A DNA stretch of 64,000 nt from Strigamia acuminata (taxonomy: Eukaryota): positions 9,052,001 through 9,116,000 of the forward strand of contig OX442314.1 of the NCBI GenBank assembly GCA_949358305.1, written 5' to 3'. The notes beneath the pieces are model-generated. The model was not told the origin of the DNA. It saw nothing but the letters and a program-made list of their open reading frames with translations, and ran no database searches. Positions 42,181 through 64,000 of the stretch are shown one piece after another (the stretch's first letter is position 1; the number at the start of each line of letters is the position of its first letter). Both the position numbers and the translations under genes were made by a program.

Positions 42181-43553
42181 TTAGGCTTTTATTATTCGAG
42201 ATTTATCGAAGAGAATAAAAGGATAAGAGACAAGGAAAGTCATACAATAATAATGCGCTATGCGCAAAAACTATACAAATTCTCAAAAAATAAATTAAAT
42301 AAATTAAACAACAAAAAAGAATGATGCGCGTCTGCGCAAAGACTTAACAACTTTGTCAAAAATAATGCACGTGGTGCAAAAACTTAACAACTTTGTCAAA
42401 ATAATAAACAAAAGTTAAACAATACCAAATTAAATATCAAAAATCAATTAGATTATTAGAGACAGAGAATTAATAAATCACCATGGCTTTTGAAAATAAA
42501 TTTAAACTAAGATTTTTGTAAAGTCACAATGGTAAATTTTAAATCATTCTACTCGAAATCACAAGACGAACAGGGACGACACAAGGAGGGCGAACACTAA
42601 ACCTAAAGGGGCCGACGATACCTAGGACGGACGAGAGTCTATACACTTTACCCAAACAATTTATAAAATAAAAATTTTAAACACTTTTACTTTTTTGTAT
42701 AAACAAACTTCTGCTTTCTGTATAAAAATCATCGAATAAACAATTTTAAATTAAACAAAAATAAAGAGCCGACACATGAGAATTATCAAGAATCAGGTTG
42801 GGATTTATTAATATCAAATTGGGTATTTATGTTATGGTAGGATGCGCGTAATTGCGCAAAACAAATACAAAATAAAGGTAAGGTACAAAATTATGCAACC
42901 TGCATAAGGTAAGTATGATTTCAGATTAATTAGGAACTTTTAAATGGATGCGCGAAACTTTGCGCAAGGATAATTTAGGTTATTAATTCTATGAATGAAA
43001 TGGAAAATAGAAACATATAAAATATTATAAAACATAACAAATACCCGCGCGCACAATACTACTCGTATTGCCACGGAATTAAATATGTTGATCAGAAAAT
43101 ATCACAAAATTAAATGAAGGGTCAAAAAAGTATCACAATAATCTTGATTAAATGCTAAATATCCATAGAAAAAACATTCATTAAATAAATGAAAACATTG
43201 AATACTGACTTGAATCATTCCAGAATAATTGCGCTAAAAATAACAATGGAAATAAAAATTAAACGAAATTAAATTCCTAAGCTTCGGAAGAAATTATCAT
43301 AATTAAATGAAGATAATTCTGGAATGATTATAGCACAAAAAAAATATCAAAATCATTAAACTAGAATAAATATTTCAATAATATGACTAGAAAATTATCG
43401 AAATCATAATTGCACTTAAATAAAATATAATTGTAGTACTAAAAATCTAATTGTCCGATTCTAAAGCACTAAAAACGTAAAAATAATTAAATAAAAATAT
43501 AAATTATCAGTGAGGATTATCACAATAGAAAACTTGCGCAAAAATAATAACAT

Positions 43554-43916
43554 TTATGATGAAACACTAATAATAATTATTTGTTCTTCAAATCGACACA
43601 TTACCGCTGCCCAAGCTCGTTCCATCAAGTCCTCCAACTCGAGAGATGTTTTACGGAGCGCCTCATCAATGGAATCGCATGGCGGAACGGAAAAATGATG
43701 AAGATTTAAAGATGATAAAGTTTTGTGGATACCATGTAGATATTGGAATGCAGGCCGGCCCAAACTCAACGCACAAATGCGGAGATGTTTTATTAGGGCA
43801 TTTACCAGAGATCCACGATCTGGCGGCGCATTTTGGACACAATTAGAGATGAAAATATGATGAAAACACAAAATAATGATGAATGGTAGGTTGAAGTGCG
43901 CACAAAGTCTTCGCAA
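43554..43916 (-). CDS. Possible small ORF4 of Y (120 aa, non-ATG start)
   Basis: Open frame in an otherwise AT-rich 3' region; no recognisable motif. Confidence 0.2.
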   Translation of the reverse strand: MRRLCAHFNLPFIIILCFHHIFISNCVQNAPPDRGSLVNALIKHLRICALSLGRPAFQYLHGIHKTLSSLNLHHFSVPPCDSIDEALRKTSLELEDLMERAWAAVMCRFEEQIIIISVSS

Positions 43917-44050
43917 ATCACCAGGATCCTCGTATCAAGTCCTTCAACTCAACGCCGAAGCGGAGGAATTTTACGAAACGCCCATTGATGTGATCTCCTG
44001 ACTTCAATTTGCAAAAAACTTGCGCACAAAGTCACGTTTAGGATTGTTGT

Positions 44051-46393
44051 TCACTCGAATTCCAAGGTTTGACGATGTTGAGGATCTCGGAAATAGATTA
44101 ACATATTAAATGCCACTTCTACCACAACACGTCGCGCATCTTGGAATGTACGTGCGCCCTGCCGATTTATTTCGAAAAGACAGTGAGCTAAAAAATATTC
44201 TCCATACCTTCGGTAGAGAAGATGCAACAGCGGATCAGCCTCCGAACGAAACATATGCAAGTCCGCAATGGCTAAAGATCGGAAAAGCTGTCGCTGAGCC
44301 CGAATCGACATATCAAATTGGAGACATCCTTGTTCTCCCTCAGCAAAATTACAACGAATCGTGGTGGGAGGCATCAAGCTTGGAAGAAGTTCCAAAGTTA
44401 TGAATGGTTGGGTTGCATCCCACTCACCTCGTCTTGTGCGGGGGGCAGGAGGCAGGAACACGTATCGATAGACAGTCGAACACCGTATTTCGCGCAATTC
44501 GGCTAAGCGGGTCCGTTCCCGTCGTCGTTTAAACTCATCCTCACTAGCCTCCTCCACTGCTCGTCTATCTGCCCAATGTCGCTCGCCGAGCCGTTCTATC
44601 TCCATCTCATATCTTCGCATATATTCCAGATTTCGTCGCTCGTCGCCTCCCCTTCTATCTACGTGATGTCGGTCGGCGAGTTGTTTCCTCTCCATTTCAT
44701 ACCTTCTTCGGTATTCCGGATTTTGTCGTTCGTCGCCTCCCTCACGTTGCTCACGTCGCCTTAGAACCTGGTGAAGCACTTGGGAGACCTCCTCATGCAT
44801 TACCCATATTAATAACTCCAGCGCATTTACGCGGTCGTAAAGGTCACATTGACTCAAGCGATGCTGAATCTGGTTGGACATGGTACGTATGCGTAGAAGC
44901 ATTTCGTTAAATACTTCTTGAAAATCGGCTTGTAGGATATTAAAATCACGGTCCATCATAAAATTTATCAAAGTTATCCAACCTCGACGCTCCATATAGA
45001 ATCTGGATGGTGAGGAATGCACATCTTGCGCATATACATTTACCTCATATCGGTTCAATAATTCGTAAATAACTTCAAACGTATGCACCGGTTTTGTGCT
45101 AATTCCAGACCTGTCTGTGAATAAATCACAATGAGTAGCTGACGTAGTTGTTGATGTACCATCGCCCAGCTGGGGTTGCGCTGATTCTAGATGCGACCCT
45201 GTCAAGTATAGTCGATCAGAAATAGTTACTGTGCTGTTAGAGGGTATAGTTGCGCTGGTGTTTCCCGGGGGTGCATTTGGTACAACTCGAAAATGAGATA
45301 TAAGGACAGGAATTTTGGATTTTTGCGAAGTCTCACGAGGTACAATCTTTACTGTTGCTCGCCTACTCAGTTCACCTGAGACTGGTCTTCTGGTTGGGGA
45401 TTGTGGCAAATTGACTGTACGCGGATCCCTTGCTTTCTTCTCAGGTCCTTGCGCATTTATAACTTGATCAGGAGGTGTCTCGATGATTACCTCATTGATT
45501 GATCCTAATAATGGCGGAGTAGTACTCAACTCGGATCCACAGTCTCGCACTGGCGGCGTGCTGGCCCGTTCCCGCTCAATCTCCTCGTTTTCCTGTTCTA
45601 TCCTTCCGTCTGATACTGCACTGTCGCATTCACAACATAAATTCAAAGTCAAATCCGGGGATGCAGGTGTCAGGCTAGGTTGCGCTTCAAACCGCGACGA
45701 GGCGCTTGCAAATAACGCATCATCGTCACCACTGCTCCAGCTATCATCAGATTCGACTGGCAAATCCGACAAATGCGCAACAGCCCGCGCAATAGCCTCT
45801 TGAACCTGGTGTACATTACCATCGAGGGTTTCCTGAAGAGATGAAATAACTTCTCGTCCCATTATTGCACGTGTCGACGACTGCTCACGATGTAATGGGT
45901 CCTCAGCCGGTGAATCAAGAAGTTGGGCGATGTTGGTACCAGGGTAAATCCATTGTCGAAGATTAATATGACTTGTCTGCGCCAATCGTCGCGCACGCTG
46001 CCAATACCAGCGGTGTACCGTCTCAAATCGCAGAATTGAAGCCGGACTTCCGTTGAGCGACCTAAACGGCGGAAACGTAACGCCGCCAATATTTATGTTG
46101 TCTTGCCTGCGTCGACGTAACACCCATCCAAAAATCTGTCTCATCCAAACCGCGAATAAATCCCTCGGCAAGTCGCCATTCCCGTTGCACGCTCGACAGG
46201 TGAGAGCGGCTCGCGGCGGGTCCTCCTCCATACCATGGCCTGAGCAGACCGGGCATATCTCGTGGCTCGGAAAACCCGTACCGAATGCTTCTACAAAGGG
46301 TTCCTCGTCCCGATTGGAAGCCATGTTGGTTTCAATATTCGTTGGGAATATAATGCGCCTAAGTTGGTGGAGGCAATGCTTATATAAATACAC
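44051..46393 (-). CDS. Element Y ORF3, 780 aa, unknown function, not Env-like
   Basis: Long open frame in env position; two CxxCxGxG motifs; duplicated 30-aa charged repeat; no evident signal peptide or TM anchor. Confidence 0.85.
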   Translation of the reverse strand: MYLYKHCLHQLRRIIFPTNIETNMASNRDEEPFVEAFGTGFPSHEICPVCSGHGMEEDPPRAALTCRACNGNGDLPRDLFAVWMRQIFGWVLRRRRQDNINIGGVTFPPFRSLNGSPASILRFETVHRWYWQRARRLAQTSHINLRQWIYPGTNIAQLLDSPAEDPLHREQSSTRAIMGREVISSLQETLDGNVHQVQEAIARAVAHLSDLPVESDDSWSSGDDDALFASASSRFEAQPSLTPASPDLTLNLCCECDSAVSDGRIEQENEEIERERASTPPVRDCGSELSTTPPLLGSINEVIIETPPDQVINAQGPEKKARDPRTVNLPQSPTRRPVSGELSRRATVKIVPRETSQKSKIPVLISHFRVVPNAPPGNTSATIPSNSTVTISDRLYLTGSHLESAQPQLGDGTSTTTSATHCDLFTDRSGISTKPVHTFEVIYELLNRYEVNVYAQDVHSSPSRFYMERRGWITLINFMMDRDFNILQADFQEVFNEMLLRIRTMSNQIQHRLSQCDLYDRVNALELLIWVMHEEVSQVLHQVLRRREQREGGDERQNPEYRRRYEMERKQLADRHHVDRRGGDERRNLEYMRRYEMEIERLGERHWADRRAVEEASEDEFKRRRERTRLAELREIRCSTVYRYVFLPPAPRTRRGEWDATQPFITLELLPSLMPPTTIRCNFAEGEQGCLQFDMSIRAQRQLFRSLAIADLHMFRSEADPLLHLLYRRYGEYFLAHCLFEINRQGARTFQDARRVVVEVAFNMLIYFRDPQHRQTLEFE

Positions 46394-47130
46394 AGAACAA
46401 ATAATACGCTTGACAAACGATACTCACAATTATCAAGCGCAACAACACGAACGCGCACAGAACGAAACAAACAACGAGGACTAAAGAATATTCCTAGGAA
46501 TGTAACGAGTCGTAAAACTTTGCTTCGAGAAGCTTCGATGAACGATTGAAAACTCGCACATGTAATAAAGTCGGGTTCGAGGTTAAACACTAACTAATTG
46601 CAATTGAAGGGCGACATTCCGTGTTGGAATTCGGAAGTTAACGAAGGTTGTCTTCGCTCAAAACTCTTGTTTTAAAGTGATTAAATAAGGATGGTGAGAT
46701 AAACAAGTAATAATTCAGAACACAGAATATTAATTTAAATAAAGTGCGCATAAATTATATTGATTGAATAATTTAAATGAATTGTGGAAATAGCCACGTG
46801 CTATTGTTTAGAGGTTAATTGGCGTCGCGCACTCTGGTGACACAAATAGTCCCTGATTGAAATGGACTTAGCCATTTTCGAGTGACCGAATATGAACATA
46901 AAATACATAACACAAAACATTAAATATAAAATATAAAGAAAACATAAAATAACATAAAACATAAAAATTAGGATGAATAAATTTAAAATAAAGGGAAAAA
47001 TAGTTTTTAAACAAAATAGGTAGTAAAGATAGATTTACACCGGATTACACTTGGTTTTTTTTTGTTTTTTTTGTTGTTTCGTTTGTGTTTTCCCTTTTTT
47101 TTTTTATTTAGCTTAAAAAATAGAAGAAAA

Positions 47131-50100
47131 TTACTTAAATGAAAGAAAATAGGCAGAAAAAATATCTAAAGTGTTGACAGCAAAAATTTCAACATGTTTA
47201 TCAATAATTTCAACGTCTTTTAAAGTTAAAAAGTTGGCCTCGGCAAAAAACCAATGTCGCAATTCCACGACATTATAAGGCTGGGTTTTTTGGCCGTTTT
47301 CATCCATTAGGATTACTGTATTGGGGCCCACCAATCTATGTATAATATATACACCTTCAGTCCGTTGGCGTAAACCTGCTGCGAATTGTTTATCGGCAGA
47401 TGAAGGTTGCCGATTGCGCAAAGTTACCCAGTCGCCAGGACGGAAGTCATGGGGGCGCCGTTTTAAATCGAACCATTTTTTGTGTCGAATTTGGGACTCG
47501 CGCAAGTTGTTAATCGCGCTTTCTCGCATTCTACGCATATGTTCGTGCAAGTTTTCAGCTTCCACGGGCGGCAACGGTTCTCCGTCATCCGTGTCGCTAT
47601 CCAGGTCGCCCGGAAATCGAGCTTCCTGGCCTGTTACCATTTTAAAGGGTGAATACTTTAAAGAAATTTGATACGCTGAATTAATCGCGAGCACGAAATA
47701 GCCAATGTTGACGTCCCATCTAGTATGGTCATCATCAATATATGCTAATATACAGTTCTTTAATGATTGGTTAAGCCTTTCCGCAATATTACCTTGCGGG
47801 TGGTATGCGGCGGTATATCTATTTATTGCGCCAAGTTGCTGGATTTGGCTACGAAATTCTGGTGAGCGAAAAGCAGGCGCATTATCGCTGATAATTATTT
47901 TGGGAAAACCCCATCTTTTGCAGAATTTCTGAATTTGTTTCACCGTAGTGGCTATATTTGAGTTTTCGGTTAGACGTACGTCTAACCATCGGCTAGCAGA
48001 GTCGACCATCACAAAGGCATAGCAATGTCCCTCTGTGGATCGAGGTTTCTTGCCGTAATAGTCGATGTAGATAGCGGAGAAAAGATGGCGCGATCTGGAC
48101 ATTATCATTTTTCCATATGGGAGCCTGTTAAGGGGTTTAGCTCTTTGACACGCTTCGCAAACCTGTATCCATGTTCGAATATCTTCGCGCATTTTTGGCC
48201 AAAATACGCGCGATTTAATGCGATGGAGTGTTCGTTCTTGCCCCATATGTCCAACTACGGGAGGATAGTGCATTGCGCGGAAATATCTTTCTCTGAGTTC
48301 AAATGGGAGATATATTTGGCGCCTCTTTCTAATTTCATTAATATGGACAGGAGGGAAGCGACATAACATCTCTTTATACATGCCGAAATCTTGCGCGTCA
48401 GCCACAATTTTAGCAGCTTCGTCCGGATCAAGTGGTAACATTTGGGCAGTTAAATAAAATATCAACTCACGCGACCAGGGATCCTGTCTTTGCGCAGCAA
48501 TGATTTCAGCAGCAGTAGGCAACAGCTCGAACGGAGGATGTTCGATTGGTGGATCGTGCTCCAATTCGGCTTGCTTCTCTGCTTCAGTCCTTGAATCTTC
48601 AATTACTGTCCTTTCTCGTCGCGGACGCAATCTCGACGGAGTTCTTTGCGCTGATGCTGGAGGCGCAGAATAATTCCTTGTTGGTGGTGACATGTCACGA
48701 ATGGGTCCAAAACTGTCCTCCGATGATGCAGAGTCAGAATCCGGGTCCGAAGTATATCCCTCTGGCCTTTGCTGTCCTGATGGTCCCGCCGCATCATCAT
48801 ACATTCTTGGTTCAGAAGGTTGACGCGGAGAAATGACAGGAAAATCAGTGATAGGAATTGAAGGAGTTGGGGAAGGAGTTGGTAAATCTGGAATTTCAGG
48901 AGAAGGTCTTGGAATGGGCCTTCGATGGCTATCGGATTGAATTATTGGTGCAGGAACTCCAGTTATGCGACGGAAATTTCGTCGTATTTTATCCACCAAA
49001 GTTCCAGGTGTCGGCAATTGTGATGGTGCCGAAGCAGTCTTTTTTCTAAAACTAGACGGATTTATTGGCGCAGGAATTCTGGTTGGAATAATTGCCGAAG
49101 GAGGAATGGAACTAGGAATAGGAGTGGATATTGGAGTTGCAGGAGGGGTAGGAATAGGTAAGGGTGGTGGAATTAAAACTGATTTAGATTTGGGTTTCAC
49201 CACATGGGAAGGAATAGCGGATTTACGTCGCACTGCCTTCAACTTTCCTACTTGCTGTGATTTCAATAACTTTGGAAATGTCCACTTTTTAATAGTTCCC
49301 GCATACCTGGGTGGTAGCCATGGTGGTGATTTAGGAATCAAAGATGGATCCTTTAATCTAGCCCGAGTTCGTGTGGCTATTGCTCGTTTAGCATGAGGAG
49401 ATAAAATTGGTATAATATCAATTTTACGTGGTCTTCCTCGTTTCTTTATCAGAATTGGGATTAAAGAGCGCTGTCGGCGGGTTCGTAAAGGCACTGAAAC
49501 ACGAACTGGTGATAAATTAGGAGTTCTCACTTGTGAGGTTGGTTGCGCAACTGGAATTGATGCATTTGGTGTTGCAGTTGGTTGCACAATTGGCGTTAGT
49601 GCAACTGGAGGGATTGTAACCGGCGGTGCCCTCGTTGGAGGAGTAGCTACGCCAGTAGAAGATGGAATTTGCGCACCCGAAGTCGGCGCATTTCCAGTCA
49701 CTTTCCCTTTACCAGTTGGTCGAGGAATAAGAGATTTTTTCTTATTTTTCTTCTTAGTCGGTGAAGATGCTGCAATGAGAGGCACTTTTTTAAATGTAGA
49801 TTTAAACAACTTTCGAAACTGCAAATTAATGTCTTTTGGCAATTCCTTGATGATATTAAGTGCCGGCCACTCGTTGCAATCATCAAAATAGGCAAGGTAA
49901 CATGCCTCGTCGACCTCCGGGCTATCATCCTCATCATCGACTTCAGGTGGGTCGACAGGAGCTCGACTTAGTGCATCCGCTACCTTATTTTTGCATCCTG
50001 AACAGTGCAAAAACGTGAATTTATAATCACTTAACGATAGCACCCAACGGGCCAAACGTCCAGTTGGTTCCCTTTGCTGAAATAACCACTTAAGAGATTG

Positions 50101-52827
50101 ATGGTCGCTCTCGAGGTAGAATGGCATCATCTCGAGGTATGCACGAAAGCGTTTGACACCCCAAACCGCGGCCAAACATTCGATTTCGGTTACTTTATAG
50201 TTCTTTTCAGCGCTGTTTAATGCGCGAGAGGCAAATGCGATTGGAATTCTCACACCTTCATCGTTAAGTTGCATTAAAGCAGCACCTAATCCAGAATAAC
50301 TAGCATCGGTCTGCAGTATAAATGGTTTTTTCCAACTGGGAAAACGTCTTTTCAGTGTTGGTATCGCAATCTGGTCTTTCAGATATTCGAACGCCAATTG
50401 CTGCGCATCTGTCCAAATCCAAGTTGCGTCCTTTTTAAGCAATGGTCGGAAAACTTCGCTAATTTTAGAAAAATTTGCAATGAATGATTGGTAATAACCT
50501 ACCATGCCCTTAAATCGTTGTAATTCGCGCAAATTGGTTGGCGCAGGATAATTTTGAATAGCAACCACTTTCTTTGGATTTGGTGTAATCTGGCCAGATT
50601 CCACGATGTGTCCCAAAACCTCGAGTCTTTTTTGACAAAGCTCAGTCTTGTTGGCGTTCATGGTGAATCCAGCGTTGAACAATTCCTCTAAAACGAGGCG
50701 CAAATGTTGCACGTGTTCCTCGAAAGTTCGGCTAAAAATAATCACGTCATCAATATACACAAATACAAATTTGTAAAGATATTTCGCAAGAGTCTTATTC
50801 ATCGCTCGTTGGAGGGTAGCGGGTCCGTTGATAGGTCCGAAAGGCATGCGCACATATTCGAATAAACCTCGATGTGTTATAAAAGCTAAATACCGTTCGT
50901 CACCTTTGCGCACGCCGATCTGATGGAAAGCTTCGCGTCCGTCGATTATCGAAAACCAATGCGCACCTCCCAAATATGCAAAGATGTTATCAATGTCCGG
51001 AAGGGGGTAAACGTCCGGAATTGTTTGCGCATTAATGGGGCGAAAATCCATAGCAGTTCTCCATTCACCTGTCTTCTTGGGTACGACGACTGGAGCAACA
51101 GCGCAATCACTTTGGGATCGCCGAATAATACCTTGCTGCAGCTTTTTGTCGATATATTTATCAATTATCGCCTTTTTCGCAGGGTTTACCGGGCGCACAG
51201 GGACATGAATTGGACGAAAATCCGGTTTCAGGTTCACCTCGTACTCGGTGTTATTACATAAACCAATTTCTTCGCGAAAGATTTGCGAAATGGGCTGCAA
51301 TGTTTTGATTAATAGTTTTATCTGTGGCACTGTCAATTGGTTCCACAACTGGTGGTAAATCCAATCTAAATCGGTCGGATCTCCACTAGGTTGGTACTGC
51401 AAAAAATTAATGTCATTAATGTTCATTTTAGAGTTATTCCCACCATTGTCAGGTTGCGCAATCGAAAAGATGTTGATTTTCGACTCCTTCTTGGCATTGA
51501 TGTCTTTAGCACGTTGCGCAACGAGTTGTTTGGCAATTGGACGAATAACATTGATTTTTCGTCGTAAACGTCGTAATCGTCGGAACTGACTCAAAGTTAA
51601 TTTACGTAAAATTGTCTTTTTTAAATTGGAGGAAATTTTAGAAGTTTCTTTCCTCTTTGGGGACCAAATATTCGACCATTTGCGTTGCGCACGATGTCGA
51701 ACTTGTTTAACTCGATACTGCGCATCGTCATGTGGATACTCGAATATTTCTTGTTGCAAGGGTCTATGCGCCAGGAGGAGGCAGTTAATTTCACTCACCG
51801 GATCCGGTTTCCTTAGTATTTTCGTCGGAACGATCTCACTAATGGCCGCCGGTGGGTTGGATGGATCCTGCGTTTCTTCCGGCGCAAATGGCAAAACCAG
51901 AATTGACTCTGACTTTTTTGCTTCTTCATAAGTCATGAATTTGCGAATCTCATTTGAGCCCACCATGCTCCACTGTTGTCTCGCATGGTCGATGTCGATT
52001 CCGGCCGCTGTGCAGAAATCACGTCCAAGGAGCATATCCATTTTGGCATCGGGTAAAACCATGCAAATGAATTTTATTATGCCTATTGGGGCGCGCAAAG
52101 CGAGCTGCATCGATTTGGTGGAATCCACTATGTCACCAGACGCGACCTGCACCCGCTCGTGGAGATTCACAAAGTCCAAACCCATTTTTTCGTGTAGTTG
52201 TTGGAACACGTCCTCACTCATTACACACGTTTGTGCGCCTGAGTCTAGAAGCGCAGTACAAGCTACATTAGCCCAGGAAATCTTTACGCAAGGTGCTTTC
52301 TTGCACAAACGATCCCCGCGCGTTATCTCAATGATGGGTTCTTGAGTTTCTTTAAGTTCCTCTGGCGTTAACATTACGAAAGATACCTTCATAGGAGAGA
52401 TCACTTCCTTTGGAGCCTCAGTCGTTGTTGCACTGGAAGTAGACTTAATTATTGGTAAAGTTTTAGTAATTTTACTCACTATTGTCACTTTCGGGTTTTT
52501 CTTCGAAATTACAGGTTGCAAATCTGTTAATTTCGGCAATTCGTCCTTTACAGCTTCAGGAACGGCAGTCTGCAGATCTGACGCCTTTGTAGCTGAGGTG
52601 ATGATGGAAGATGATGAAGAAATAACACTACTTACAGGTTTATACTCTGAAAGAGTAATAACAGTAGGAGATGTTGTTGAATTAACCTGTGAAGGATCGT
52701 CCTCTTTCAAGTTAATTAAAGGTGAAGCGCGTCGTTTGGATTTCAGACGTTTTGCGCGAAGGGCCGGTCGACTCATTTGCGGCCTGGTTCCACCGGCTTC
52801 CCGAACTTCAGGCCTTCGGAGTTTTCC
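47131..52827 (-). CDS. pol: Element Y Pol (protease, RT, RNase H, long linker, integrase)
   Basis: LLDSGA; YIDD; LQTDAS; HHCC (H..GHMG..CEAC); YIDY/SDNA/AER DDE. Confidence 0.97.
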   Translation of the reverse strand, partial: GKLRRPEVREAGGTRPQMSRPALRAKRLKSKRRASPLINLKEDDPSQVNSTTSPTVITLSEYKPVSSVISSSSSIITSATKASDLQTAVPEAVKDELPKLTDLQPVISKKNPKVTIVSKITKTLPIIKSTSSATTTEAPKEVISPMKVSFVMLTPEELKETQEPIIEITRGDRLCKKAPCVKISWANVACTALLDSGAQTCVMSEDVFQQLHEKMGLDFVNLHERVQVASGDIVDSTKSMQLALRAPIGIIKFICMVLPDAKMDMLLGRDFCTAAGIDIDHARQQWSMVGSNEIRKFMTYEEAKKSESILVLPFAPEETQDPSNPPAAISEIVPTKILRKPDPVSEINCLLLAHRPLQQEIFEYPHDDAQYRVKQVRHRAQRKWSNIWSPKRKETSKISSNLKKTILRKLTLSQFRRLRRLRRKINVIRPIAKQLVAQRAKDINAKKESKINIFSIAQPDNGGNNSKMNINDINFLQYQPSGDPTDLDWIYHQLWNQLTVPQIKLLIKTLQPISQIFREEIGLCNNTEYEVNLKPDFRPIHVPVRPVNPAKKAIIDKYIDKKLQQGIIRRSQSDCAVAPVVVPKKTGEWRTAMDFRPINAQTIPDVYPLPDIDNIFAYLGGAHWFSIIDGREAFHQIGVRKGDERYLAFITHRGLFEYVRMPFGPINGPATLQRAMNKTLAKYLYKFVFVYIDDVIIFSRTFEEHVQHLRLVLEELFNAGFTMNANKTELCQKRLEVLGHIVESGQITPNPKKVVAIQNYPAPTNLRELQRFKGMVGYYQSFIANFSKISEVFRPLLKKDATWIWTDAQQLAFEYLKDQIAIPTLKRRFPSWKKPFILQTDASYSGLGAALMQLNDEGVRIPIAFASRALNSAEKNYKVTEIECLAAVWGVKRFRAYLEMMPFYLESDHQSLKWLFQQREPTGRLARWVLSLSDYKFTFLHCSGCKNKVADALSRAPVDPPEVDDEDDSPEVDEACYLAYFDDCNEWPALNIIKELPKDINLQFRKLFKSTFKKVPLIAASSPTKKKNKKKSLIPRPTGKGKVTGNAPTSGAQIPSSTGVATPPTRAPPVTIPPVALTPIVQPTATPNASIPVAQPTSQVRTPNLSPVRVSVPLRTRRQRSLIPILIKKRGRPRKIDIIPILSPHAKRAIATRTRARLKDPSLIPKSPPWLPPRYAGTIKKWTFPKLLKSQQVGKLKAVRRKSAIPSHVVKPKSKSVLIPPPLPIPTPPATPISTPIPSSIPPSAIIPTRIPAPINPSSFRKKTASAPSQLPTPGTLVDKIRRNFRRITGVPAPIIQSDSHRRPIPRPSPEIPDLPTPSPTPSIPITDFPVISPRQPSEPRMYDDAAGPSGQQRPEGYTSDPDSDSASSEDSFGPIRDMSPPTRNYSAPPASAQRTPSRLRPRRERTVIEDSRTEAEKQAELEHDPPIEHPPFELLPTAAEIIAAQRQDPWSRELIFYLTAQMLPLDPDEAAKIVADAQDFGMYKEMLCRFPPVHINEIRKRRQIYLPFELRERYFRAMHYPPVVGHMGQERTLHRIKSRVFWPKMREDIRTWIQVCEACQRAKPLNRLPYGKMIMSRSRHLFSAIYIDYYGKKPRSTEGHCYAFVMVDSASRWLDVRLTENSNIATTVKQIQKFCKRWGFPKIIISDNAPAFRSPEFRSQIQQLGAINRYTAAYHPQGNIAERLNQSLKNCILAYIDDDHTRWDVNIGYFVLAINSAYQISLKYSPFKMVTGQEARFPGDLDSDTDDGEPLPPVEAENLHEHMRRMRESAINNLRESQIRHKKWFDLKRRPHDFRPGDWVTLRNRQPSSADKQFAAGLRQRTEGVYIIHRLVGPNTVILMDENGQKTQPYNVVELRHWFFAEANFLTLKDVEIIDKHVEIFAVNTLDIFSAYFLSFK

Positions 52828-54743
52828 GGTCTCCTAAATGGCTGGTAACATATGGGGCACAACGGATGCCAAGTTGCTGTATCTACCAAATACCACCAAT
52901 CCTTCGGTGTTTTCCTCCAGGCTGTGCCTTTCTCAGGACATTTGACAGTTAATGGTGGTTTTGGCGCTGGTGGAAACGTGACAATTGACGTAGAGCACAC
53001 ATGGTCCTTTGGGACGTCTGCTGGAGGTGTCAGAGTAGCTAAATTTATTTTAATTGTTGCCTTCTGAGCCGCCTCGGCGACTGTGCTCTTCTTAATTTCA
53101 GGTTCAGCATCCGTGTCGCTGCTACTACTACTCGTATCGGGTTCCTGCGCAGGTGGAGATTGTTCTGGTCTCGCCTGCACTGCAGCTAACTCGATTAAGA
53201 ATTGTTTTCGATACCTCGCAAAACGTTTGACGTCCTGGGACACGAGAGATTTGACATCATCGTCTCCTTTGGACTTCTCCGCAGCCTTGAGCACTGTGGG
53301 GCGTTGCGCATCACGCAGAGAGGGCATTCGTTGATCAGCCATACCCAGATCTTTGTATTCGTCTGCTCGAATGGTGTCCAGCTGTAGACGATTGTCGATG
53401 TCATTACCTCTTTGGATCGCCTCGTCCAGCGAGTTTACGTTCCATGCGCGCAAGAGATGAACAACTTCGGTTTGCATCATGTTCTGAGCTTTCTCCCATT
53501 GGAGCTCTGGGTCGGTATATCCTGCAACCTGAAGATAATATACAATCTCACTTAAAAATGACATCGTAGACTCTCCATTTCGTTGCTTTCGCTTGGATAG
53601 CTTCACATTGGCCGCTGCCGAATTCATGGCGAAAGCTCGTCGAAATAATATCTCAAAGTCCTCCCATGTTTTTGGTTTTGGTTTTAGTGATAACCACCAT
53701 CGCTGCGCTCTTCCACGCGTTGCTTGAATGACAAATACTTTTAAATATTCATCCACCGGGGCCTGCATAGAATACATGTGCGCGTACAAATGCGCAAGAA
53801 AAAGATTAATGTAATCAAGATCGGCTTTATCTGGATCAAACAAAGGTGGTTTTCCAGGCTTGAAACAATTTTTATCTTTACTTGCGTGTTGCGCTCTTAC
53901 TGACGGCAGTGACAACTTTGCCTTGGTGTCGGATCTATCCCGAGGATATCCCATCTTGGAGTATAGCATCGAGCTCATTAAATCTCGATTTGCTCGTGTT
54001 GAATGGTCCAAATGAGCAGATTCCTGTGATGGAGCCTGGGTATAGATCGTTGCCATCGTCGGCATTGGCGGCGTGGTTGTTGTGTAAACAATTTGCGCAG
54101 CCTGCGCGGACATTTTCGTCTGCTGGCCTCGATGTTCAACTTCCCGTTGCTGGTGCGGACATGCTGTGGGAAGTCCTAAATCATATGGTGCCGAGGTGCC
54201 TTTAACTCTTATGGAGCCATGCGAGGATCCACCGTCTAGAGACCGTGCGGTCCCTGTTCGTAGAGAGCGAGGGCCTTGTTGGAATATTTCGCGAATCTCA
54301 TTTACTAGACCTCGTGTTTGAGCATAGTATTGGTTGCGCAAGTCGGACATCAGCAAACCTTCCGTATTTAATGTGACGGGGTCTACTAATGCTCTAGGCT
54401 GAGTCGAATCGAAAAAAGATGGCGCCGCCAAAAAGTTAGCGGGTGTTGACGTGGCAAAATTTACTTGAGGTTGCGCTCGTGAATTTGCAACAGCCATTGT
54501 CATGATATGATTTGATGGGGCTGGCTGTTGTTGCGCAATACTCACAAGCGTTTCCTGTTGTTCGATACGACTTCTTCGTAATTGGTCGTGTTGCTGCCAC
54601 TCTCGAAATTCCCTTTCCTCTTCCCGGCGAACACCACTCCTCCGTTCGGACTGTTGCCATTCCTGCTCCATTTCTAACTCACTGAAATCAAATGGATCGC
54701 GCGTGACGGGACGAATTCCGTCACCTCCCAACTGTCTCGACAT
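52773..54743 (-). CDS. gag: Element Y Gag
   Basis: GRAQRWW...TWEDFEILFRRAF...RKQRNGES retrotransposon capsid signature; first ORF after PBS. Confidence 0.9.
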   Translation of the reverse strand: MSRQLGGDGIRPVTRDPFDFSELEMEQEWQQSERRSGVRREEEREFREWQQHDQLRRSRIEQQETLVSIAQQQPAPSNHIMTMAVANSRAQPQVNFATSTPANFLAAPSFFDSTQPRALVDPVTLNTEGLLMSDLRNQYYAQTRGLVNEIREIFQQGPRSLRTGTARSLDGGSSHGSIRVKGTSAPYDLGLPTACPHQQREVEHRGQQTKMSAQAAQIVYTTTTPPMPTMATIYTQAPSQESAHLDHSTRANRDLMSSMLYSKMGYPRDRSDTKAKLSLPSVRAQHASKDKNCFKPGKPPLFDPDKADLDYINLFLAHLYAHMYSMQAPVDEYLKVFVIQATRGRAQRWWLSLKPKPKTWEDFEILFRRAFAMNSAAANVKLSKRKQRNGESTMSFLSEIVYYLQVAGYTDPELQWEKAQNMMQTEVVHLLRAWNVNSLDEAIQRGNDIDNRLQLDTIRADEYKDLGMADQRMPSLRDAQRPTVLKAAEKSKGDDDVKSLVSQDVKRFARYRKQFLIELAAVQARPEQSPPAQEPDTSSSSSDTDAEPEIKKSTVAEAAQKATIKINLATLTPPADVPKDHVCSTSIVTFPPAPKPPLTVKCPEKGTAWRKTPKDWWYLVDTATWHPLCPICYQPFRRPENSEGLKFGKPVEPGRK

Positions 54744-54825
54744 GATGAAGAAAATGTGAAATGATTAAATAAATAACTCAAAAAACTAACCTTTTCGCGC
54801 GTTTAAGCCTTATAGGTGAGAGCGA

Positions 54826-54843
54826 ATCCTGTCAGGCTCGCCA
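54826..54843 (-). other. Primer binding site of Y (probably tRNA-Arg)
   Basis: TGGCGAGCCTGACAGGAT, 4 nt from LTR; resembles complement of the tRNA-Arg(ACG) 3' end from memory. Confidence 0.75.
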
Positions 54844-54847
54844 TGTT

Positions 54848-55519
54848 TGTTACGAATCAACTTAGATGTTTAATTGATTTGATCTGAATTTACGCGCAAG
54901 GTGATGTTAGCGCAAATCAGCGGGCAAAGTTCGTAGATTTACTCTGTTTGTGCCATCGTCATATGCGGATATCGGACGGTGAATAAACCTAACTCGCTGT
55001 AACACACATTATTTATATTCGACGGGCTCAATCTCACGTTGTGGGTCTTTACGTTTAAAAAGAATGAGTATGCGCAGTGATATTCGTATGCGGGTGGGCA
55101 TAGGATGTCACAGGCATGCGAAGGGATAAAAGGTGGGCAAAAAGAGGCGCTATTAAGTGTTAAATTAGAAGGGGCGCGTGTTAAAGCGCAAAATAAAGAT
55201 TGACAAACTCAATTCAATCTAAGAGGTGTTAACTCGTTGAAAGAGGTATGAGAAGTGTGGATTATGGATAAAAGTAGCGACCAGGTAAACATGAGTCATG
55301 TGACCAGGTCGATTGGAGTGGGTGAGGGGGTGGAAGGTATAAAATAAGGTTAATTGTTGGAAATAATAAGATGCGCGCAATGAGGCTGCGCATATATTTA
55401 GAGATGATTCATCAATGTTAGATGAAAAGAAAGATTGGGAAAAAATAAGAAAACTTAAGATTGGGTCAGTCTAAGTTAGAAATGAATAAAAAAGAAGGGT
55501 GGGTAACCTGCCCGTGACA
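54848..55519 (-). repeat. Element Y 5' LTR
   Basis: Direct repeat of 41498-42169 at offset 13350. Confidence 0.97.
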
Positions 55520-58500
55520 GTTGTTTCACTGTTGTAGAAACGTCTGCCTTTTCGGTGAGTCTCACGTCCACCCAGCGACTGGCTGCATCCACCATTACGA
55601 ACGCGTAGCAGTGTCCGCCAGTGGACTTCAACTTTTTCCCGAAGTAGTCGACGTAAATGGTCCGAAACAACCGTCTCGGTTTCGCGGTCTCCATCTCGCC
55701 ATACGGTAGCCTCCGCTCGACCTTCGCCCTTTGACAAGGTTCACAAACTTTAATCCAATTTGCTACATCTTTTTTCATCCCTGGCCAAAACACACGGGTT
55801 TTTAGACGCATCAGTGTTTTCTCGATCCCGAGATGGCCAGAGGTTGGTGGGAAATGTAAGCAATGAAAATACTTGTAACGAAGGGATTGAGGGAGGTAAA
55901 TACGACGCGTAGGAGCTCGTTGACCGATCTTAGTTGGTGGAAACTTGCAGAGCAGACCACGGTGTAACGCCATGTCCACTGCTCGTTTCTTAAGTTCTGC
56001 AGCTTCCATCTCACCTGGCGGCAGAGACCCTGAATTGAGATATAATATAAGTCCCTTAGACCATTCATCGGCTAGTTGGGCTTCTTTAACGGCTTTCTGT
56101 GTTGGGAGAATCTCAATTGTCGGATGATCCGCCGGAAGTGAGTAGAAACTCTCGTCAGACGAGTGCTCAGAGTGGTCAAGCAACTCCGCATCGATAGAGG
56201 GTGTTGGTGAAACCAAATCTCGCCGTGGTTGGGTCCTCGGTGACAAGTCCCGTGGAATCACAGGAATTTGAAACTCCTCGGAGTCCGTGTCTCCCGGCAG
56301 CTCCTCACTGTCCAACGACATTTCGCTGGCCTCCGAGCCCGTAGAGCGATCGAGGATGATAGGAGTTTTCTTTTTCGGTCTTCCGACCGGTCGCTTCTCC
56401 ACAACCTTTTTGGGTCGCCCCCGTTTTCTCTTCTCAGGAACGTCAATTGGCAAAGAAACTGCACCTGACTCTTCTTCCGAAGTTGGTGGAATAGGACGCG
56501 TTACGGGTAAAGATTTAGGCTGCGTCATGTCCCCGCTGGCCGGAGTCTTCCGCGGACGACCTCTTTTCCTTTTTACAGGAACGTCTTCCTTAGGCAAAGA
56601 CACCGCCACAGATTCTTCGTCCGACATTGGCAGAGTAGGCTGTGCTCCCGGCAAGGGTCCCGCCTGAGTCGGCCCCTTTGCAATGGGATTTTTCCGTGGA
56701 CGTCCCGGTCCTCTTTTTGGAGGGGGCTCGTCCTCCACCGGACATACGTCCACTGCCGTAGCCGACAAGGCGTTCAATCTCGCCAGGAACGCACGTTTCT
56801 GCTTACGCATTGTTACCGCTCTAACGATTTTACAGTTGGGTGATTTCCAATGAGTCACCTCATCTAACTCTTCCATTTTGGGTACTGGCCAGTCGTTGAA
56901 ATCATCGAAGTACACACAGTAGTACGTGTCATCCAACGCTGGACAGTCTTCGTCATCCAGCTCGATCGGCGGGTCAACTGGCGCCCGACTCAACGCATCG
57001 GCGACCCGATTCTTCGTACCACTACAGTGGAGAACTGTGAATCGGTATTCCGACAGCGAAAGAATCCATCGCGCCAACCGGCCCTTTGGCTCTCGCTGGG
57101 AAAACAGCCATACCAAGGACTTGTGATCACTCTCTAGATAGAAATCCATCAACTCGAGGTATGCTCTAAAGCGTTTGACGGCCCAGACGGCGGCCAGGCA
57201 CTCAATCTCCGTCGTATGGTAATTCTTCTCTGCACTGTTTAGGGCCCGCGATGCAAAGGCAATTGGGACGCGTACGCCGTCATTGTTGATCTGCATCAAC
57301 GCAGCCCCTAGACCAGAATAACTCGCATCGGTTTGTAAGATGTAAGGCTTACTCCAGTCCGGGAAATTCCTGTGCAAGGTAGATAACGACACTTGATTTT
57401 TGAGATACTCGAAAGCCGCCTGATGCGCCGCCGTCCAGTTCCATGGCGCATTCTTACGCATAAGAACTCGAAAGACCTCACAAGTCTTGGAATATCCTGG
57501 AAAGAACGACGAGTAGTACCCGATCATGCCCTTGAAGCGTTGTAATTCCTTCAAGTTAGTGGGGGCCGGGTACTTGCTGATCGCGTCGGTCTTCTTTGGG
57601 TTAGGACGGATAAGTCCCTCCTCGACAATATGTCCGAGCACCTCAAGACTTGTCTTGCACAACTCCGTTTTTCCCGCGTTCATTGTGAACCCCGCTTGGT
57701 CGAGCAAAGTGAGCACTTTTTGCAGGTGAGTCACATGCTCTTCGAAGGTCTTACTAAACACGATTATGTCGTCGATGTACACAAAGACAAACTTGTAGAG
57801 ATGCTCAGCTAGAGTCAAATTCATGGCCCTTTGTAAGGTGGCAGGGCCATTGATCGGACCGAAGGGCATACGCGTATACTCAAAGAGTCCCCTGTGGGTG
57901 ATAAACGCGAGATATCGTTCATCTCCAGGTCGGACCCCTATTTGGTGGAACGCTTCCCTTCCGTCGATGATGGAAAACCATTTTGCCCCACCCAGATATG
58001 CAAAGATGTTGTCGATATCTGGGAGGGGGTAAACATCAGGCAAAGTTTGGGAATTGATCGGCCTAAAATCCATTGCGCAGCGCCAGCGTCCGTCCTTTTT
58101 GGGGACAACTACGGGCGCCACGGCGCAGTCGCTTTTGGAGCGCTTGATTACTCCTTGCGCCAACTTTTGGTCGATATAGGCATCGATTATTTCCCTTTTT
58201 GCCGGATTCACCGGACGTACCGGGACATGAATAGGTCGGAAGTCAGGCTTCAGATTCACCTCAAACTGTGTGTTATTACAGAGCCCCAGTTCCTCACGAA
58301 AGATATGAGCAACTGGTTTCAACGCATCCATTAAGTGATTAATGCGTTTTGGCTCCAACTGATTACACAGCTGATCATACACCCAAGCGAGGTTGGTAGG
58401 ATCTCTGTTTGGGATGTATTGGACGAAATTAACATCATGCTGTCTTGGAGTACCTTCCGCCATTTGACAAGCAGAAGAGGTCTCCGCGTTGTCGACGACA

Positions 58501-59708
58501 TTTCTCTCTCCACTCGGAGAATCTGCAGTCTCAACCAACGTTCGTTTAGCCACCGCTTTAACTCTTGCTTTACGCAACTTAATGGCTCGACGCATCTGAC
58601 TCAAACACATGGCCTTTTTCCCAGGTTTACGCGTAACTCGCACGATGTGCTTACGTGCGGTTTTTTCACGTCTCTTAGGTGACCATATGAAGGTCCATTT
58701 TTGAGCGTCTTGCCCTCTCCGAGCAACAACCACTTTGACAATACAAGGATTGTCTTCGTGTGGAGGCTCAAATAACTCCACTTCAAAATTACGTTTGCCC
58801 AGCAAGACGCAGTTAGCTTCACTAATTGGTGGTTTTGTGACGACCACAGGTTTCTCCTCTGCCTTCTCCTCCTTTGCAGGAATCTCGGGGGTCAGTTCCC
58901 GCTCCTTTTGGCCGACAAGCTTGACGGGCACCGCCGTTTCCTCTGGCTTGGGGACCGGCGGATTTCGCAAAGCCGGAAGGTTGTACAGAGGGGGCCCCTT
59001 AACCGCAATTCCCTTCGGAAGGGAAGGTTGTTCCTTTGTTAAAGGGAATAAGATCACTGGATCAGATGCCCTAGCTTGCTCTTCCGTGAGGAAGGGATGC
59101 CTCGTGCCATCCCCTAAGAGGAACCAGTATTCGTTGGCGTGGTCTGTACAAAGACCAACTGCCTTGCAGAAATCCAGCCCCAAGAGGAGCTCCTGAGACC
59201 CCTCCTCTATGATGAGGCAAGTAAAGCAAACTACCGCCGTAGGAGCACGGACGGCTAGTTGTGCACAGCCAACCACTTTGGTAATATGATTGTCGGCTGT
59301 CCGGATGGTCTCGTCCAGTTTCACCATTTCTATGCCTATCTCTTTTGCGAGTTTTTCATACAATGCCATGGTCATTATGCACGTCTGTGCACCGCTGTCC
59401 ATCATTGCAATGAACTCGATATTGATCCAGGCGATTTTAACAAAGGCCGCGTCTCGCCGACAACGGTCCTTCAACCCGATTATCAATTTCGGCTCTTTGG
59501 AAGCCAAAAATTCGGGTGGTGACAACATAATGAAATTTGTCATTTTCGGCTTAGAAGCCGCTAACGCGGTGGTACTGGTCTTCTGCAACGCAGGGGGTAC
59601 CATCCAACCGCTTGTGCTATCTAAAGCTTCCAACGTCCGACTTATTTGGGTTTCGGGTCCGCTGCCTTTCCGTTGGATGGTTTGGACAGTGGACCCTGGT
59701 CGTTTCCC
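55520..59708 (-). CDS. pol: Element X Pol (interrupted in integrase)
   Basis: MMDSGA; YIDD; LQTDAS; four GRP AT-hook-like motifs; HHCC; first DDE Asp. Confidence 0.95.
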
Positions 59709-61711
59709 GGAAACTGCCAGGGCTTAAAGCAGTGGGGACATAATGCGATGCGTTTTTCAATATCACGCATGTACCATCTGTCCTTCCGATTGCGCACCCA
59801 CTCAGCTCCGGGTGGCAACGGTGTTATTGGGGGGTTAGCCGTATTGGCGAAGGTGTGGGCAACATGTCCACATTGTGCCGCCCCCACAGCCGGAGTAGGT
59901 TTATTCTCCGGAACCTTTACAGACGCGTTTATTTGCGGCTCTGGGGCTCTCGACGGTTCAACACTAACAACGGACTGTCCAGCAACACTCTGCAGGTCCT
60001 CACCCGTTGCCCCAACCAACTCAGCCAACGCAACCAATTTCCTTTTATCAAACTGGAAGCGACCAGGCGTAGGCTTTTCTGCTGTCTTTGTTTTGGCAGG
60101 CTCTACCACCTTTTTGGTCGCTTTAACAGCTTGCTTATCCTTATCCTTGGATTGAGGTCGAGGCACCGGACCTCTTCTCACTCCGCGCTCATCGAATTTA
60201 TACTGCTGAAGAGAACGCAACGCCAATTCGCTGTCAGCCTCTTGCCCCATCTCTATGGCCTGCGACATGAAGCGGACTCCGTACCGAGTCATTGCATCCG
60301 TTATCTGCGGTTGAAGGCGATGTTTCGCCATATTCCATTGTTGCCTATCCCCCCGAATACCTATCATCTCGAGGTAACGACTGATTTCACATAGAAACTC
60401 AGCCGTATCATCCCCTACTTCCTGCCAGGCATCCGTCAGGAAGACCGTTGCTTCGGCCTCCTTGAGGGAATAACGTTTCCGGAAACGCATAACAAATTCA
60501 TCCCATGTTTTTGGTTTATGGCGTAAGTGCAAGTACCAATTTAAGGGCTTCCCACACAGCGCCAACGGAATGAACAAGTCAATATACGCTTCATCCGGAA
60601 TGCGCGTCATGATATAATGGGCGCGCAATTTCGCTAGGAATCTTTCGACCGCATTATAGGATTGGTCATCCTCATCAAATATCGGCACATGTTCCGACCT
60701 CACATGCGACAAGTCATATTGATTATATCGCGTCTGCGGCCGCTGCCGGGGCGTCGGCGTTACCGCTGCTGCTTGGGCGTCCCGCGCCCGTTGCAAACGC
60801 GTATTTACCGAATCCCCCCGCGCAGCCGCTGCGCGATCAACACTTGCTGTATCCGGCAAGCTAACAGCTGTCGACTTTGAGCGTATAATACTCCTCATCA
60901 CCTCACTGTTACATTGTGAGGGCGTACCCATTCGAGACCCCGCGCGAGCTGTCACGTCCGATGGTCTCTCATTTGAAGGTAAACGAGGATTTACATCCCC
61001 TTGTAACCTTCCTACTACTGCTATTCCTTGCCTGTTCAACTCGCTAGGCGTCAGAATGCGTGAAGACTGAACACTTCCCCCAGGTTCCCTCTGACCGTCA
61101 GAACGAGGTCCATCACCAGGCAAAGGGTTATGAGGTCTTTGCTGAGCTGGTGGAATTACCTCCTCCTCGGGCTGTACAGCTAATGCCACGATTTCGGCCC
61201 TAATCACTTGTCTCACCCCCACCAGAGTCTCATCTCTATAATTTCCCAGTCGGTAGTCAACATGCTGACCAAACTGGTTTAATGCTCGGACCATACGCTC
61301 ATTCATGGCCAATTCCGCATTTTGCAAATACGGCAGCCATTCTGGAGGCCGTTGACCAGCCTCTTCTTCCTCCTCCTCGACGTTATCCTCAGGACTACTC
61401 CTTTGTTGAGGTGGCGCCGAAGGATTTGGTTGCACGGGCGTTAAAAGATCCGAAGCAGACGCGTCGACATGGGACTCACGCGTAGAAGGAGTAGTGTCCG
61501 GGCAGTAGGTACTATCCGTTGAAGTGGATTTATCTTCTACCTTTACTCGTGTGACATTCCCGTGTGGTCGCAAAAGGTACGGCGGCCCACCGCCTCTTGC
61601 CACGGGCAAGCCATACTCTGAGCGGGTTCTCGGAGGATGCGCATCAAGGGGACGCCGTGGAGTTTCATCACACAAGCGCTCCCCAACTCTACGCATCCAG
61701 CTAGGCCACAC
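59642..61711 (-). CDS. gag: Element X Gag
   Basis: GKPLNWY...KTWDEFVMRFRKRY...WQEVGD capsid signature; homologous to Y Gag. Confidence 0.9.
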   Translation of the reverse strand: MWPSWMRRVGERLCDETPRRPLDAHPPRTRSEYGLPVARGGGPPYLLRPHGNVTRVKVEDKSTSTDSTYCPDTTPSTRESHVDASASDLLTPVQPNPSAPPQQRSSPEDNVEEEEEEAGQRPPEWLPYLQNAELAMNERMVRALNQFGQHVDYRLGNYRDETLVGVRQVIRAEIVALAVQPEEEVIPPAQQRPHNPLPGDGPRSDGQREPGGSVQSSRILTPSELNRQGIAVVGRLQGDVNPRLPSNERPSDVTARAGSRMGTPSQCNSEVMRSIIRSKSTAVSLPDTASVDRAAAARGDSVNTRLQRARDAQAAAVTPTPRQRPQTRYNQYDLSHVRSEHVPIFDEDDQSYNAVERFLAKLRAHYIMTRIPDEAYIDLFIPLALCGKPLNWYLHLRHKPKTWDEFVMRFRKRYSLKEAEATVFLTDAWQEVGDDTAEFLCEISRYLEMIGIRGDRQQWNMAKHRLQPQITDAMTRYGVRFMSQAIEMGQEADSELALRSLQQYKFDERGVRRGPVPRPQSKDKDKQAVKATKKVVEPAKTKTAEKPTPGRFQFDKRKLVALAELVGATGEDLQSVAGQSVVSVEPSRAPEPQINASVKVPENKPTPAVGAAQCGHVAHTFANTANPPITPLPPGAEWVRNRKDRWYMRDIEKRIALCPHCFKPWQFPGNDQGPLSKPSNGKAADPKPK

Positions 61712-61908
61712 ACTCTTGGAGTTATCCTCTTTAGGATGCCCTCTTCTGCCATTGCGTCAACTCAAGCAATTTAGCAGCAAAACTCAAATGGATGATCCAC
61801 TCTAAAAAAGGCGAGTAACGATACCACTCGACCTTTGTTTTCCGAATAATGATTACTAGCCCACTGGAAACAGTTTATACGGCTAGCAATCGAAAAGCTA
61901 CGGGATAT

Positions 61909-61926
61909 TCCCGGGTTTCGGCACCA
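61909..61926 (-). other. Primer binding site of X (tRNA-Phe)
   Basis: Plus strand TCCCGGGTTTCGGCACCA equals the metazoan tRNA-Phe(GAA) 3' end with CCA; 2 nt from TGTGATGG LTR edge. Confidence 0.9.
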
Positions 61927-61928
61927 AG

Positions 61929-63060
61929 TGTGATGGATCGCGAGTCTAGGTGGTTTAGAAGCGTTTGAAAGACGCCGCGAAACAGTAAATTCACACACCC
62001 TGGTAGTTTCGTACCTGCCGTAAATCGAATGTGCGCAGGAAGTGGCAGCTAACACACTCTCAGATACTGTGCACCACACTAATATTTATTTGTGGCCGGG
62101 TATCCCGAGCTGTAAAACTCGGGGACAGAATGTCCGGTAGTCGCGTCTGAACCAAAACCCAACGCGTGACCCGCCAACAATCGTGTTTTCACACGAAGGC
62201 AAACGAATGCACGTCTCGTAGTGGCTCATAAGCAACCCCAAACTGTCGAGTTTGAACGAGGATGGGCGATTTACTCGTGCTTATACAACGCACGGGCCCT
62301 AAACCCAACTCTAAACCTGACTTAATGCTTAATTAAAGCTAAAGCCCGAATGGCAGGCGGCTAAACTAAGCTAAACGCACGCGCAAGCGAAATGAAAGAC
62401 ACAAACTTCGAACTTATGGCCAACAAATCCTGTTTGGCCTTGGATAACGCGTCACGGCGATAAAACATGAACAAAAAGGAGCAGAAAAACAAATGGTGAA
62501 CGAGTGGTGTAAAACCGTGAGTTAACACGCGAAATGAAATGAAAGCCTGAAACCGTGTTGCAGAATTCCAGGGCGAATGCAAAGCTACAAGTGAGCTTCG
62601 GAGTTAAACCTCAGCCATGAGCACCGGCTCCAAAGGAGCACCTACGCGTTCGGGATACTGAGATCAACTGAAGAAAAAGAGGAAAAATAGGGTGAGAGGT
62701 AAACTTGGACTCAACCAAGCTTGACCAATCACGGAAGAGTCAAGAGCCAATCACCACTGTCGGTGCATACTGATGAGTATGACTGATGACGACGCGTGAT
62801 GACCAGAATAGATATGCAAAGAAGTTTGCATCCAAATCATAAACGAAAGAGAAAAAACTAGGAGTAGATAAGAGAAAAGTGAGAGAATGAAGAGAAAGTT
62901 AGGAGTGAGTAAGGGATAAGATAGATAGAAAATGAGGAAAACTCACGAATGAACATAAACAATACAACAACACAAGGTAAAGACAAATTAAGGTTTAATA
63001 CAACACAAACACGGGTTAACAATGCGTAAACTATACGCGTAGGAAACACGGGCCGTGACA
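61929..63060 (-). repeat. Element X 5' LTR (1132 bp)
   Basis: Termini TGTCACGG (63060, minus) and TGTGATGG (61929, plus); adjacent PBS. Confidence 0.85.
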
Positions 63061-63344
63061 AAGAAATTTCAATAAATATCAAGAAATTTCAATAAATATC
63101 AAGAAATTTCAATAAATATCAAGAAATTTCAATAAATATCAAGAAATTTCAATAAATATCAAGAAATTTCAATAAATATCAAGAAATTTCAATAAATATC
63201 AAGAAATTTCAATAAATATCAAGAAATTTCAATAAATATCAAGAAATTTCAATAAATATCAAGAAATTTCAATAAATATCAAGAAATTTCAATAAATATC
63301 AAGAAATTTCAATAAATATCAAGAAATTTCAATAAATATCAAGA
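63061..63344. repeat. Perfect 20-bp minisatellite (AAGAAATTTCAATAAATATC)x14 + AAGA
   Basis: Direct reading; no variants seen. Confidence 0.99.
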
Positions 63345-64000
63345 TGTCACGGCCCGTGTTTCCTACGCGTACAGTTTACGCATTGTTAACCCGTGTTTGT
63401 TCCTATTAAACCTAATTTTGTCATCTTCTTACCTTTGTTGTTTTGTTTGTGTTTGATTCGTGAGTTTTCCTCATTTTCCTTCTATCTTATCTCTTACTCT
63501 CTCCTAACTTTCTCTTCATTCTCTCACTTTTCTCTTATCTACTCCTAGTTTTTCTTCTTTAGTTTATGATTTGGATGCAAACTTCTTTGCATATCTATTC
63601 TGGTCATCACGCGTCGTCATCAGTCATACTCATCAGTATGCACCGACAGTGGTGATTGGCTCTTGACTCTTCCGTGATTGGTCAGGCTTGGTTGAGTCCA
63701 AGTTTACCTCTCACCCTATTTTTCCTTTTTTGCTTCAGTTGATCTCAGTATCCCGAACGCGTAGGTGCTCCTTTGGAGCCAGTGCTCATGGCTGAGGTTT
63801 AACTCCGAAGCTCACTCGTGGCTTTGCTTTCGCCCTGGAATTCTGCAACACGGTTTCAGGCTTTCATTTCATTTCGCGTGTTAACTCACGGTTTTACACC
63901 ACTCGTTCACCATTTGTTTTCCTGCTCCTTTTTGTTCATGTTTTATCGCCGTGACGCGTTATCCAAGGCCAAACAGGATTTGTTGGCCATAAGTTTGAAG
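63345..64000 (+). mobile_element. Second X-family LTR in opposite orientation (runs off window)
   Basis: Starts TGTCACGGCCCGTG; diverged reverse complement of ~62405-63060. Confidence 0.9.

Follow-up and report, generated by a model that had tools for sequence, protein, structure and literature searches.

Two long terminal repeats (LTRs) in a 64,000-nucleotide stretch of Strigamia acuminata DNA (hereafter the window; GCA_949358305.1, contig OX442314.1, positions 9,052,001 to 9,116,000, forward strand) abut a 20-bp minisatellite at the same step of its repeat unit, which raises the question whether a retrotransposon family prefers this repeat and enters it at one register. The case comprises two junctions (n = 2) at one locus, chosen after the fact out of a very large scan. 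The array (63061-63344, forward strand) is flawless, consisting of 14 identical 20-bp units (AAGAAATTTCAATAAATATC), with no unit variation, plus AAGA. The unit is 85% AT, has a dimeric make-up in which two 10-bp halves agree at 8 of 10 positions, and carries A-tracts spaced about 10 bp apart. A search of the 64-kb window for the unit, with up to 3 mismatches allowed, returned 14 matches, all inside the array, against a mean of 0.01 in shuffled sequence. On the left lies the 5' LTR of an element that we call X (61929-63060, reverse strand; 1132 bp, TG...CA), and on the right, in the opposite orientation, begins another X-family LTR, of which the initial 656 bp are in the window (63345-64000, forward strand); it is either a 5' LTR or a solo LTR and continues past the window end.

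The junctions are exact on both sides. AAGA directly follows position 63060 on the left, the TG start of the right LTR at 63345 directly follows AAGA, and the two LTRs thus stand head to head, with their TG (5') ends facing the array. The initial annotation had placed the right LTR and its preceding AAGA at these coordinates, correctly, and had also given the correct coordinate for the left LTR; it had, however, described the left LTR as ending at 63060, which in element orientation is the start of the element, the TG end. Its further claim that both AAGA 4-mers occupy one position of the 20-bp unit holds, since AAGA occurs once per circular unit (its reverse complement does not occur) and the array length modulo 20 is 4. 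The same AAGA register is therefore used in both orientations, by the two junctions of this single locus. If the array received two insertions, they would share a register by chance with a probability of 1/20. The presence of two X-family copies 284 bp apart, at a repeat otherwise absent from 64 kb, is a stronger oddity than the shared register.

The window holds most of X, and its predicted domains bear on the description of both LTRs as Gypsy LTRs. A primer-binding site (61909-61926, reverse strand) begins with TGG 2 bp past the LTR and, we presume, resembles the 3' end of tRNA-Phe. A gag-like open frame (59642-61756, reverse strand; 704 aa) has a weak Retrotrans_gag match (E 0.003), and pol (55524-59723, reverse strand) comprises protease, reverse transcriptase (RT), RNase H, a long spacer, an integrase zinc finger and the start of the integrase core, where it is interrupted by a second element, Y. 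The Pfam order protease-RT-RNase H-integrase is that of Ty3/Gypsy, the best homologues are 32-44% identical, and X is, as judged from these predicted domains, a Ty3/Gypsy element without a close relative. Searches of metagenome contigs gave 0 matches to the exact LTR-start pattern and 16 loci with pol relatives, 15 of them at 25-38% identity and one a short 64% match, with 0 carrying a 12-mer of the repeat; no pol relatives were found in viral contigs. In addition to the TG...CA LTR and the primer-binding site, X has an LTR boundary that agrees with contig breaks in sequencing runs: contigs of runs X1 and X3 break off after an overlap of 30 bases from 61929, as they should where an LTR ends and the assembly branches. 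The description as Gypsy is thus borne out by pol for the left LTR, whereas the right LTR is Gypsy only through its likeness to the LTR of X. At 61901-61942, run contigs match the primer-binding site and the last LTR bases of X and diverge on both sides; other families have this primer and LTR end in common with X.

Element Y (41498-55519, reverse strand), a related Gypsy element within the X integrase, provides the local reference for target-site duplication. Its paired LTRs are identical (672/672), and it is bounded by a 4-bp duplication, GTTG, at 41494-41497 and 55520-55523, as had been claimed; its target is not the 20-bp repeat. Identical 672-bp LTRs, a polypurine tract and open gag and pol mark Y as a Gypsy element that is full-length and very young; its pol is 52-62% identical to that of X. 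The first 8 LTR bases are common to X and Y; a further TGTCACGG, the 8-mer that opens both LTRs, occurs at 1201-1208 and, as self-BLAST gives no more likeness there, is probably due to chance. A third open frame of Y, after pol (44051-46423, reverse strand; 790 aa), has a zinc-knuckle-like CxxC...CxxC start and a weak DnaJ_CXXCXGXG match (E 0.019), with no env-like Pfam match.

The rest of the X integrase (40765-41497, reverse strand) ends at TTAA beside a piggyBac-like terminus (40764), and by self-BLAST the 3' LTR of X is absent from the window. The terminus belongs to a 30-kb block (10005-40764) in which GC-rich tandem repeats of complex structure (units of 11, 20 and 53 bp and larger) lie between inverted ends of ~780 bp, each beginning with TTAA then CCTT; the block resembles a piggyBac array of giant size and non-autonomous type. 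The sequences that flank it do not match each other, being gene-like to the left and X integrase to the right, which implies recombination or an assembly join within the block. To its left are a gene-like fragment (9642-10004) with a Cys-rich stretch, MYND-like by eye, that ends at the TTAA at 10005, and, beyond a 200-N gap (9442-9641), a thymidine kinase fragment that reaches the gap (9058-9441, reverse strand) and is 37-58% (about 50%) identical to sequences from scattered taxa, eukaryotes among them. No RNA genes were found in the window.

By the example of Y, the AAGA at 63061-63064 (forward strand), which adjoins the TG end of X, and the AAGA at 63341-63344 (forward strand), which adjoins the TG end of the right LTR, are candidate 4-bp copies of a target site, the length being taken from Y. 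Both are candidate duplications only, because the far ends of both elements, and with them the partner copies, lie outside the window by self-BLAST. On the assumption of a 4-bp duplication like that of Y, the junctions look like those of two oppositely oriented insertions that share a register. The array as a piece of the retrotransposon was ruled out: it lies outside the TG, and its orientation relative to the two copies differs.

The initial annotation had proposed that the two insertions were independent. One alternative is that a single insertion was followed by inverted duplication, gene conversion or assembly fold-back that produced the second LTR. Inverted near-identical arms flanking a perfect array are a typical spot for assembly errors, and among the contig pieces listed none spans the whole LTR-array-LTR structure. 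However, a mirror copy would carry the adjacent repeat in reverse, and the array is not reversed: the flank compared with its mirror image gives 16/40 matches, which rules out a fold-back artefact and speaks against the inverted duplication or misassembly that had been named as a refuting case. The two arms, moreover, agree at 627 of 650 aligned positions (96.5%; 23 substitutions, 11 gap columns, K2P 0.036), and part of the differences are alleles of the family. At at least 5 of the 23 substitutions (from 40 of 128 variant rows) the right-LTR letter is an allele of other individuals, and at 62485, 62625 and 62914 it is the majority letter in all three runs. Because these right-LTR alleles are common in other individuals, the right LTR is a family member in its own right and not a decayed copy of the X LTR. 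A copying event would also have required a rearrangement break precisely at the TG end and at AAGA. Insertions copied along with their satellite give same-strand copies, in a case described in passages of a preprint (bioRxiv 10.64898/2026.09.17.752431), and recombinational copying of one insertion is disfavoured here because the elements are opposed while the array keeps a single direction. Double insertion at the same site is ruled out by geometry, as it would leave a 4-bp spacer and not an array. We conclude that the two LTRs are likely independent insertions, in agreement with the initial annotation, and that derivation of one from the other is improbable.

The runs also bear on the abundance of the family and of the repeat. 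The data are three public contig sets (X1, X2 and X3) from one organism and two studies, one of them possibly the source of the window itself, with a share of words of 0.42-0.62. They show that the X family is multi-copy. The 20-bp repeat has tandem joints in each of the three runs; X1 and X2 also contain variant units, and in X3 there is a degenerate border with no LTR, from which it follows that the repeat exists outside this locus. The summed depth of the repeat relative to the internal depth of the element is 2, 20 and 14 in X1, X2 and X3, respectively, contig depth being distinct from copy number. The repeat is thus likely a small minisatellite family and not a large satellite. The joints listed, from which 109 loose ends are missing, include none that links the repeat with the 3' end of the LTR (61929) and none that changes strand at the LTR start; a strictly targeted family might show such joints, on contigs that would hold about 30+30 bases.

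These observations weigh on a second alternative, that the array grew after the insertions. In this account two elements landed in ordinary DNA at a distance of 24 bp, and slippage then amplified the AAGA-bounded spacer between them. The identity of all 14 units indicates recent homogenisation, as against LTRs that are 3.6% apart, and a spacer between inverted LTRs would plausibly be unstable. Amplification at this locus, however, does not account for the variant units and the non-LTR border in other individuals, nor for a repeat depth well above that of one locus in two of the three runs, and it leaves the shared AAGA to be explained. A change in unit number, for its part, fits independent insertion into an existing array equally, because it leaves the register unaffected. 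We give post-insertion growth of the array very little credence.

The main rival is that there is no family-wide targeting, that in an insertion-rich nest two copies landed in one AT-rich array, and that an ordinary weak local preference for sequence or bending, or else 1-in-20 luck, put both elements at AAGA. The nested Y and the piggyBac-like end within X attest to heavy local insertion. Passages of PMC5408687 treat weak target preferences as common for retroelements. The repeat-to-LTR-end joint is missing from the joints listed, as noted above, and the related Y, although its spacer is longer and carries one GRP motif, sits in the X integrase and not in the repeat. The rival, for its part, has to place two X-family copies no more than 284 bp apart in a repeat whose overall extent seems small. 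Under a rough uniform-insertion estimate that assumes a genome of 150 Mb (from the contig totals of X1 and X3), 25-60 LTR starts and 8 kb of repeat, the expected number of same-register pairs per genome is about 1e-9 to 1e-8, and a 50-fold regional concentration of insertions still gives only about 2e-5 per genome and family, figures in which the size of the scan is ignored. The repeat being a likely small target, few same-register pairs are expected under uniform insertion by this rough reckoning. We therefore regard an insertion nest with weak local preference as a serious but unlikely account of the locus.

We favour, at somewhat better than an even chance, the explanation that two Gypsy copies inserted independently, in opposed orientations, at one AAGA step, in a family that prefers this 20-bp repeat. 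In its favour, both junctions place exact TG termini beside the sole AAGA of the unit; against it stand the position of Y and the high local insertion density of a window that is a nest of insertions. The initial annotation had gone further and proposed site- and phase-specific integration into an AT-rich satellite; of this, the shared register stands, while specificity as a property of the family rests on two junctions at one locus, and the target is the small minisatellite family described above. A palindromic target as the sole cause was rejected, since AAGA is not the most palindromic register (3/5 flank matches, as compared with 4/5 in two other registers). A minisatellite-preferring Gypsy family is, we conclude, a credible but unproven candidate.

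The long spacer of X pol suggests a way in which such a preference could arise. The region between RNase H and the integrase zinc finger is 366 aa in X, compared with a median of 105 and a maximum of 332 in homologues (114 of 120 placeable for both domains), and it carries four GRP[RK] AT-hook-like motifs (56370-56710, reverse strand; pol aa 1007, 1055, 1102 and 1114). Such motifs occur in the spacer of 1 of 114 homologues and anywhere in the protein in 11 of 120. Pfam AT_hook scores the X spacer at E 0.15 and 12.5 bits, under the 17.4 cut-off. The spacer of Y is 554 aa, is proline-rich and contains the single AT-hook-like GRP motif mentioned above. No chromo match at E up to 5 was found in the truncated remainder of X or in the complete pol end of Y. 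AT-hooks bind the minor groove of AT tracts, and A-tracts phased at about 10 bp bend DNA. From motif content, the GRP motifs of the spacer are a candidate tether for AT-rich DNA; alternatively, they may be nuclear localisation signals.

In a mechanism for the preferred explanation, the spacer may remain on the integrase and draw it to AT-rich arrays. If the GRP motifs stay with it, they would attach to the AAATTT/AAATAT tracts and anchor the integration complex at the array. Bending of the DNA by A-tracts phased at 10 bp would give a local shape that favours one register, the AAGA step, and the integrase would make both junctions by a 4-bp staggered cut around AAGA. The strongest form of this proposal, in which the X family is sequence- and register-specific, homes to the 20-bp minisatellite, cuts at AAGA in either orientation and is steered by AT-hooks in its own pol that act as a self-encoded DNA tether, is possible but in our judgement doubtful. 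If correct, it would add a new way for an element to reach a safe-haven site and would offer a simple system in which to study the reading of DNA shape and sequence by an integrase; if there is no family preference, the locus is an ordinary insertion nest with a 1-in-20 coincidence. Literature searches returned no report of register-specific minisatellite targeting and none of AT-hooks encoded in Gypsy pol, in a coverage that was incomplete and in which absence is weak evidence.

Comparison with known systems places the candidate. The initial annotation had called specific integration rare for LTR elements; fixed-site insertion into a tandem repeat is indeed uncommon, yet it has been described. 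Passages of the report on Beon1, a Galadriel chromovirus (Ty3/Gypsy) of beet, report that it occupies a conserved 18S rDNA position in either orientation, with a conserved duplication (PMC3605345), so that there is precedent for Gypsy elements that enter a tandem repeat at a fixed position and in both orientations; the explanation preferred by the authors, in those passages, is a single old insertion that spread along with the rDNA. X resembles Beon1 in being a Gypsy element at a fixed position of a tandem repeat in both orientations, at two junctions only. It differs in that, by the same passages, Beon1 has a gene target, a 5 bp duplication and a chromodomain, whereas the target of X is a 20-bp non-coding unit, the part of X present has no chromodomain match and its specificity is putative.

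The Drosophila errantiviruses gypsy, ZAM and Idefix have, in the passages of PMC5408687 that treat them, short sequence-specific targets (TATA, CGCG, ATAT) that are palindromic and dispersed. Neither AAGA, the candidate of the X family, nor GTTG of Y matches these, and the candidate AAGA is non-palindromic and lies inside a tandem repeat. Centrophilic Tal1 enters tandem-repeat arrays via its integrase, according to parts of PMC12859917 and bioRxiv 10.64898/2026.09.17.752431, and in the latter the duplications of Athila are not widely shared in Geum. Tal1, Athila and CRM are like X in being LTR elements inside tandem-repeat arrays; as portrayed in these excerpts they differ in following CENH3 chromatin and large arrays, whereas here there is a 284-bp array, a shared register and no sign of a centromere. 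In Anoplius nigerrimus, several Gypsy copies in a 349-bp satellite have identical duplications, lie on one strand and are ascribed to host recombination, in the relevant part of the same preprint (bioRxiv 10.64898/2026.09.17.752431). The presence of several Gypsy copies in one satellite is a likeness, but the copies there are on the same strand, whereas the two X-family copies are opposed relative to the array.

A model for how the X spacer could act is offered by LEDGF, whose AT-hook motifs, in passages of PMC3185499, help tether lentiviral integration complexes to chromatin. LEDGF, as depicted there, is a host protein with no repeat or register specificity, whereas the motifs of X lie in its own pol and have a putative function. 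Targeted LTR elements, in the portions of the literature cited here, rely on host factors or chromatin (Ty1/Ty3/Ty5, Tal1) or on short palindromic motifs (errantiviruses), and the X family, if the proposal is true, would have a self-encoded tether unlike the chromatin and host-factor tethers of other targeted LTR elements.
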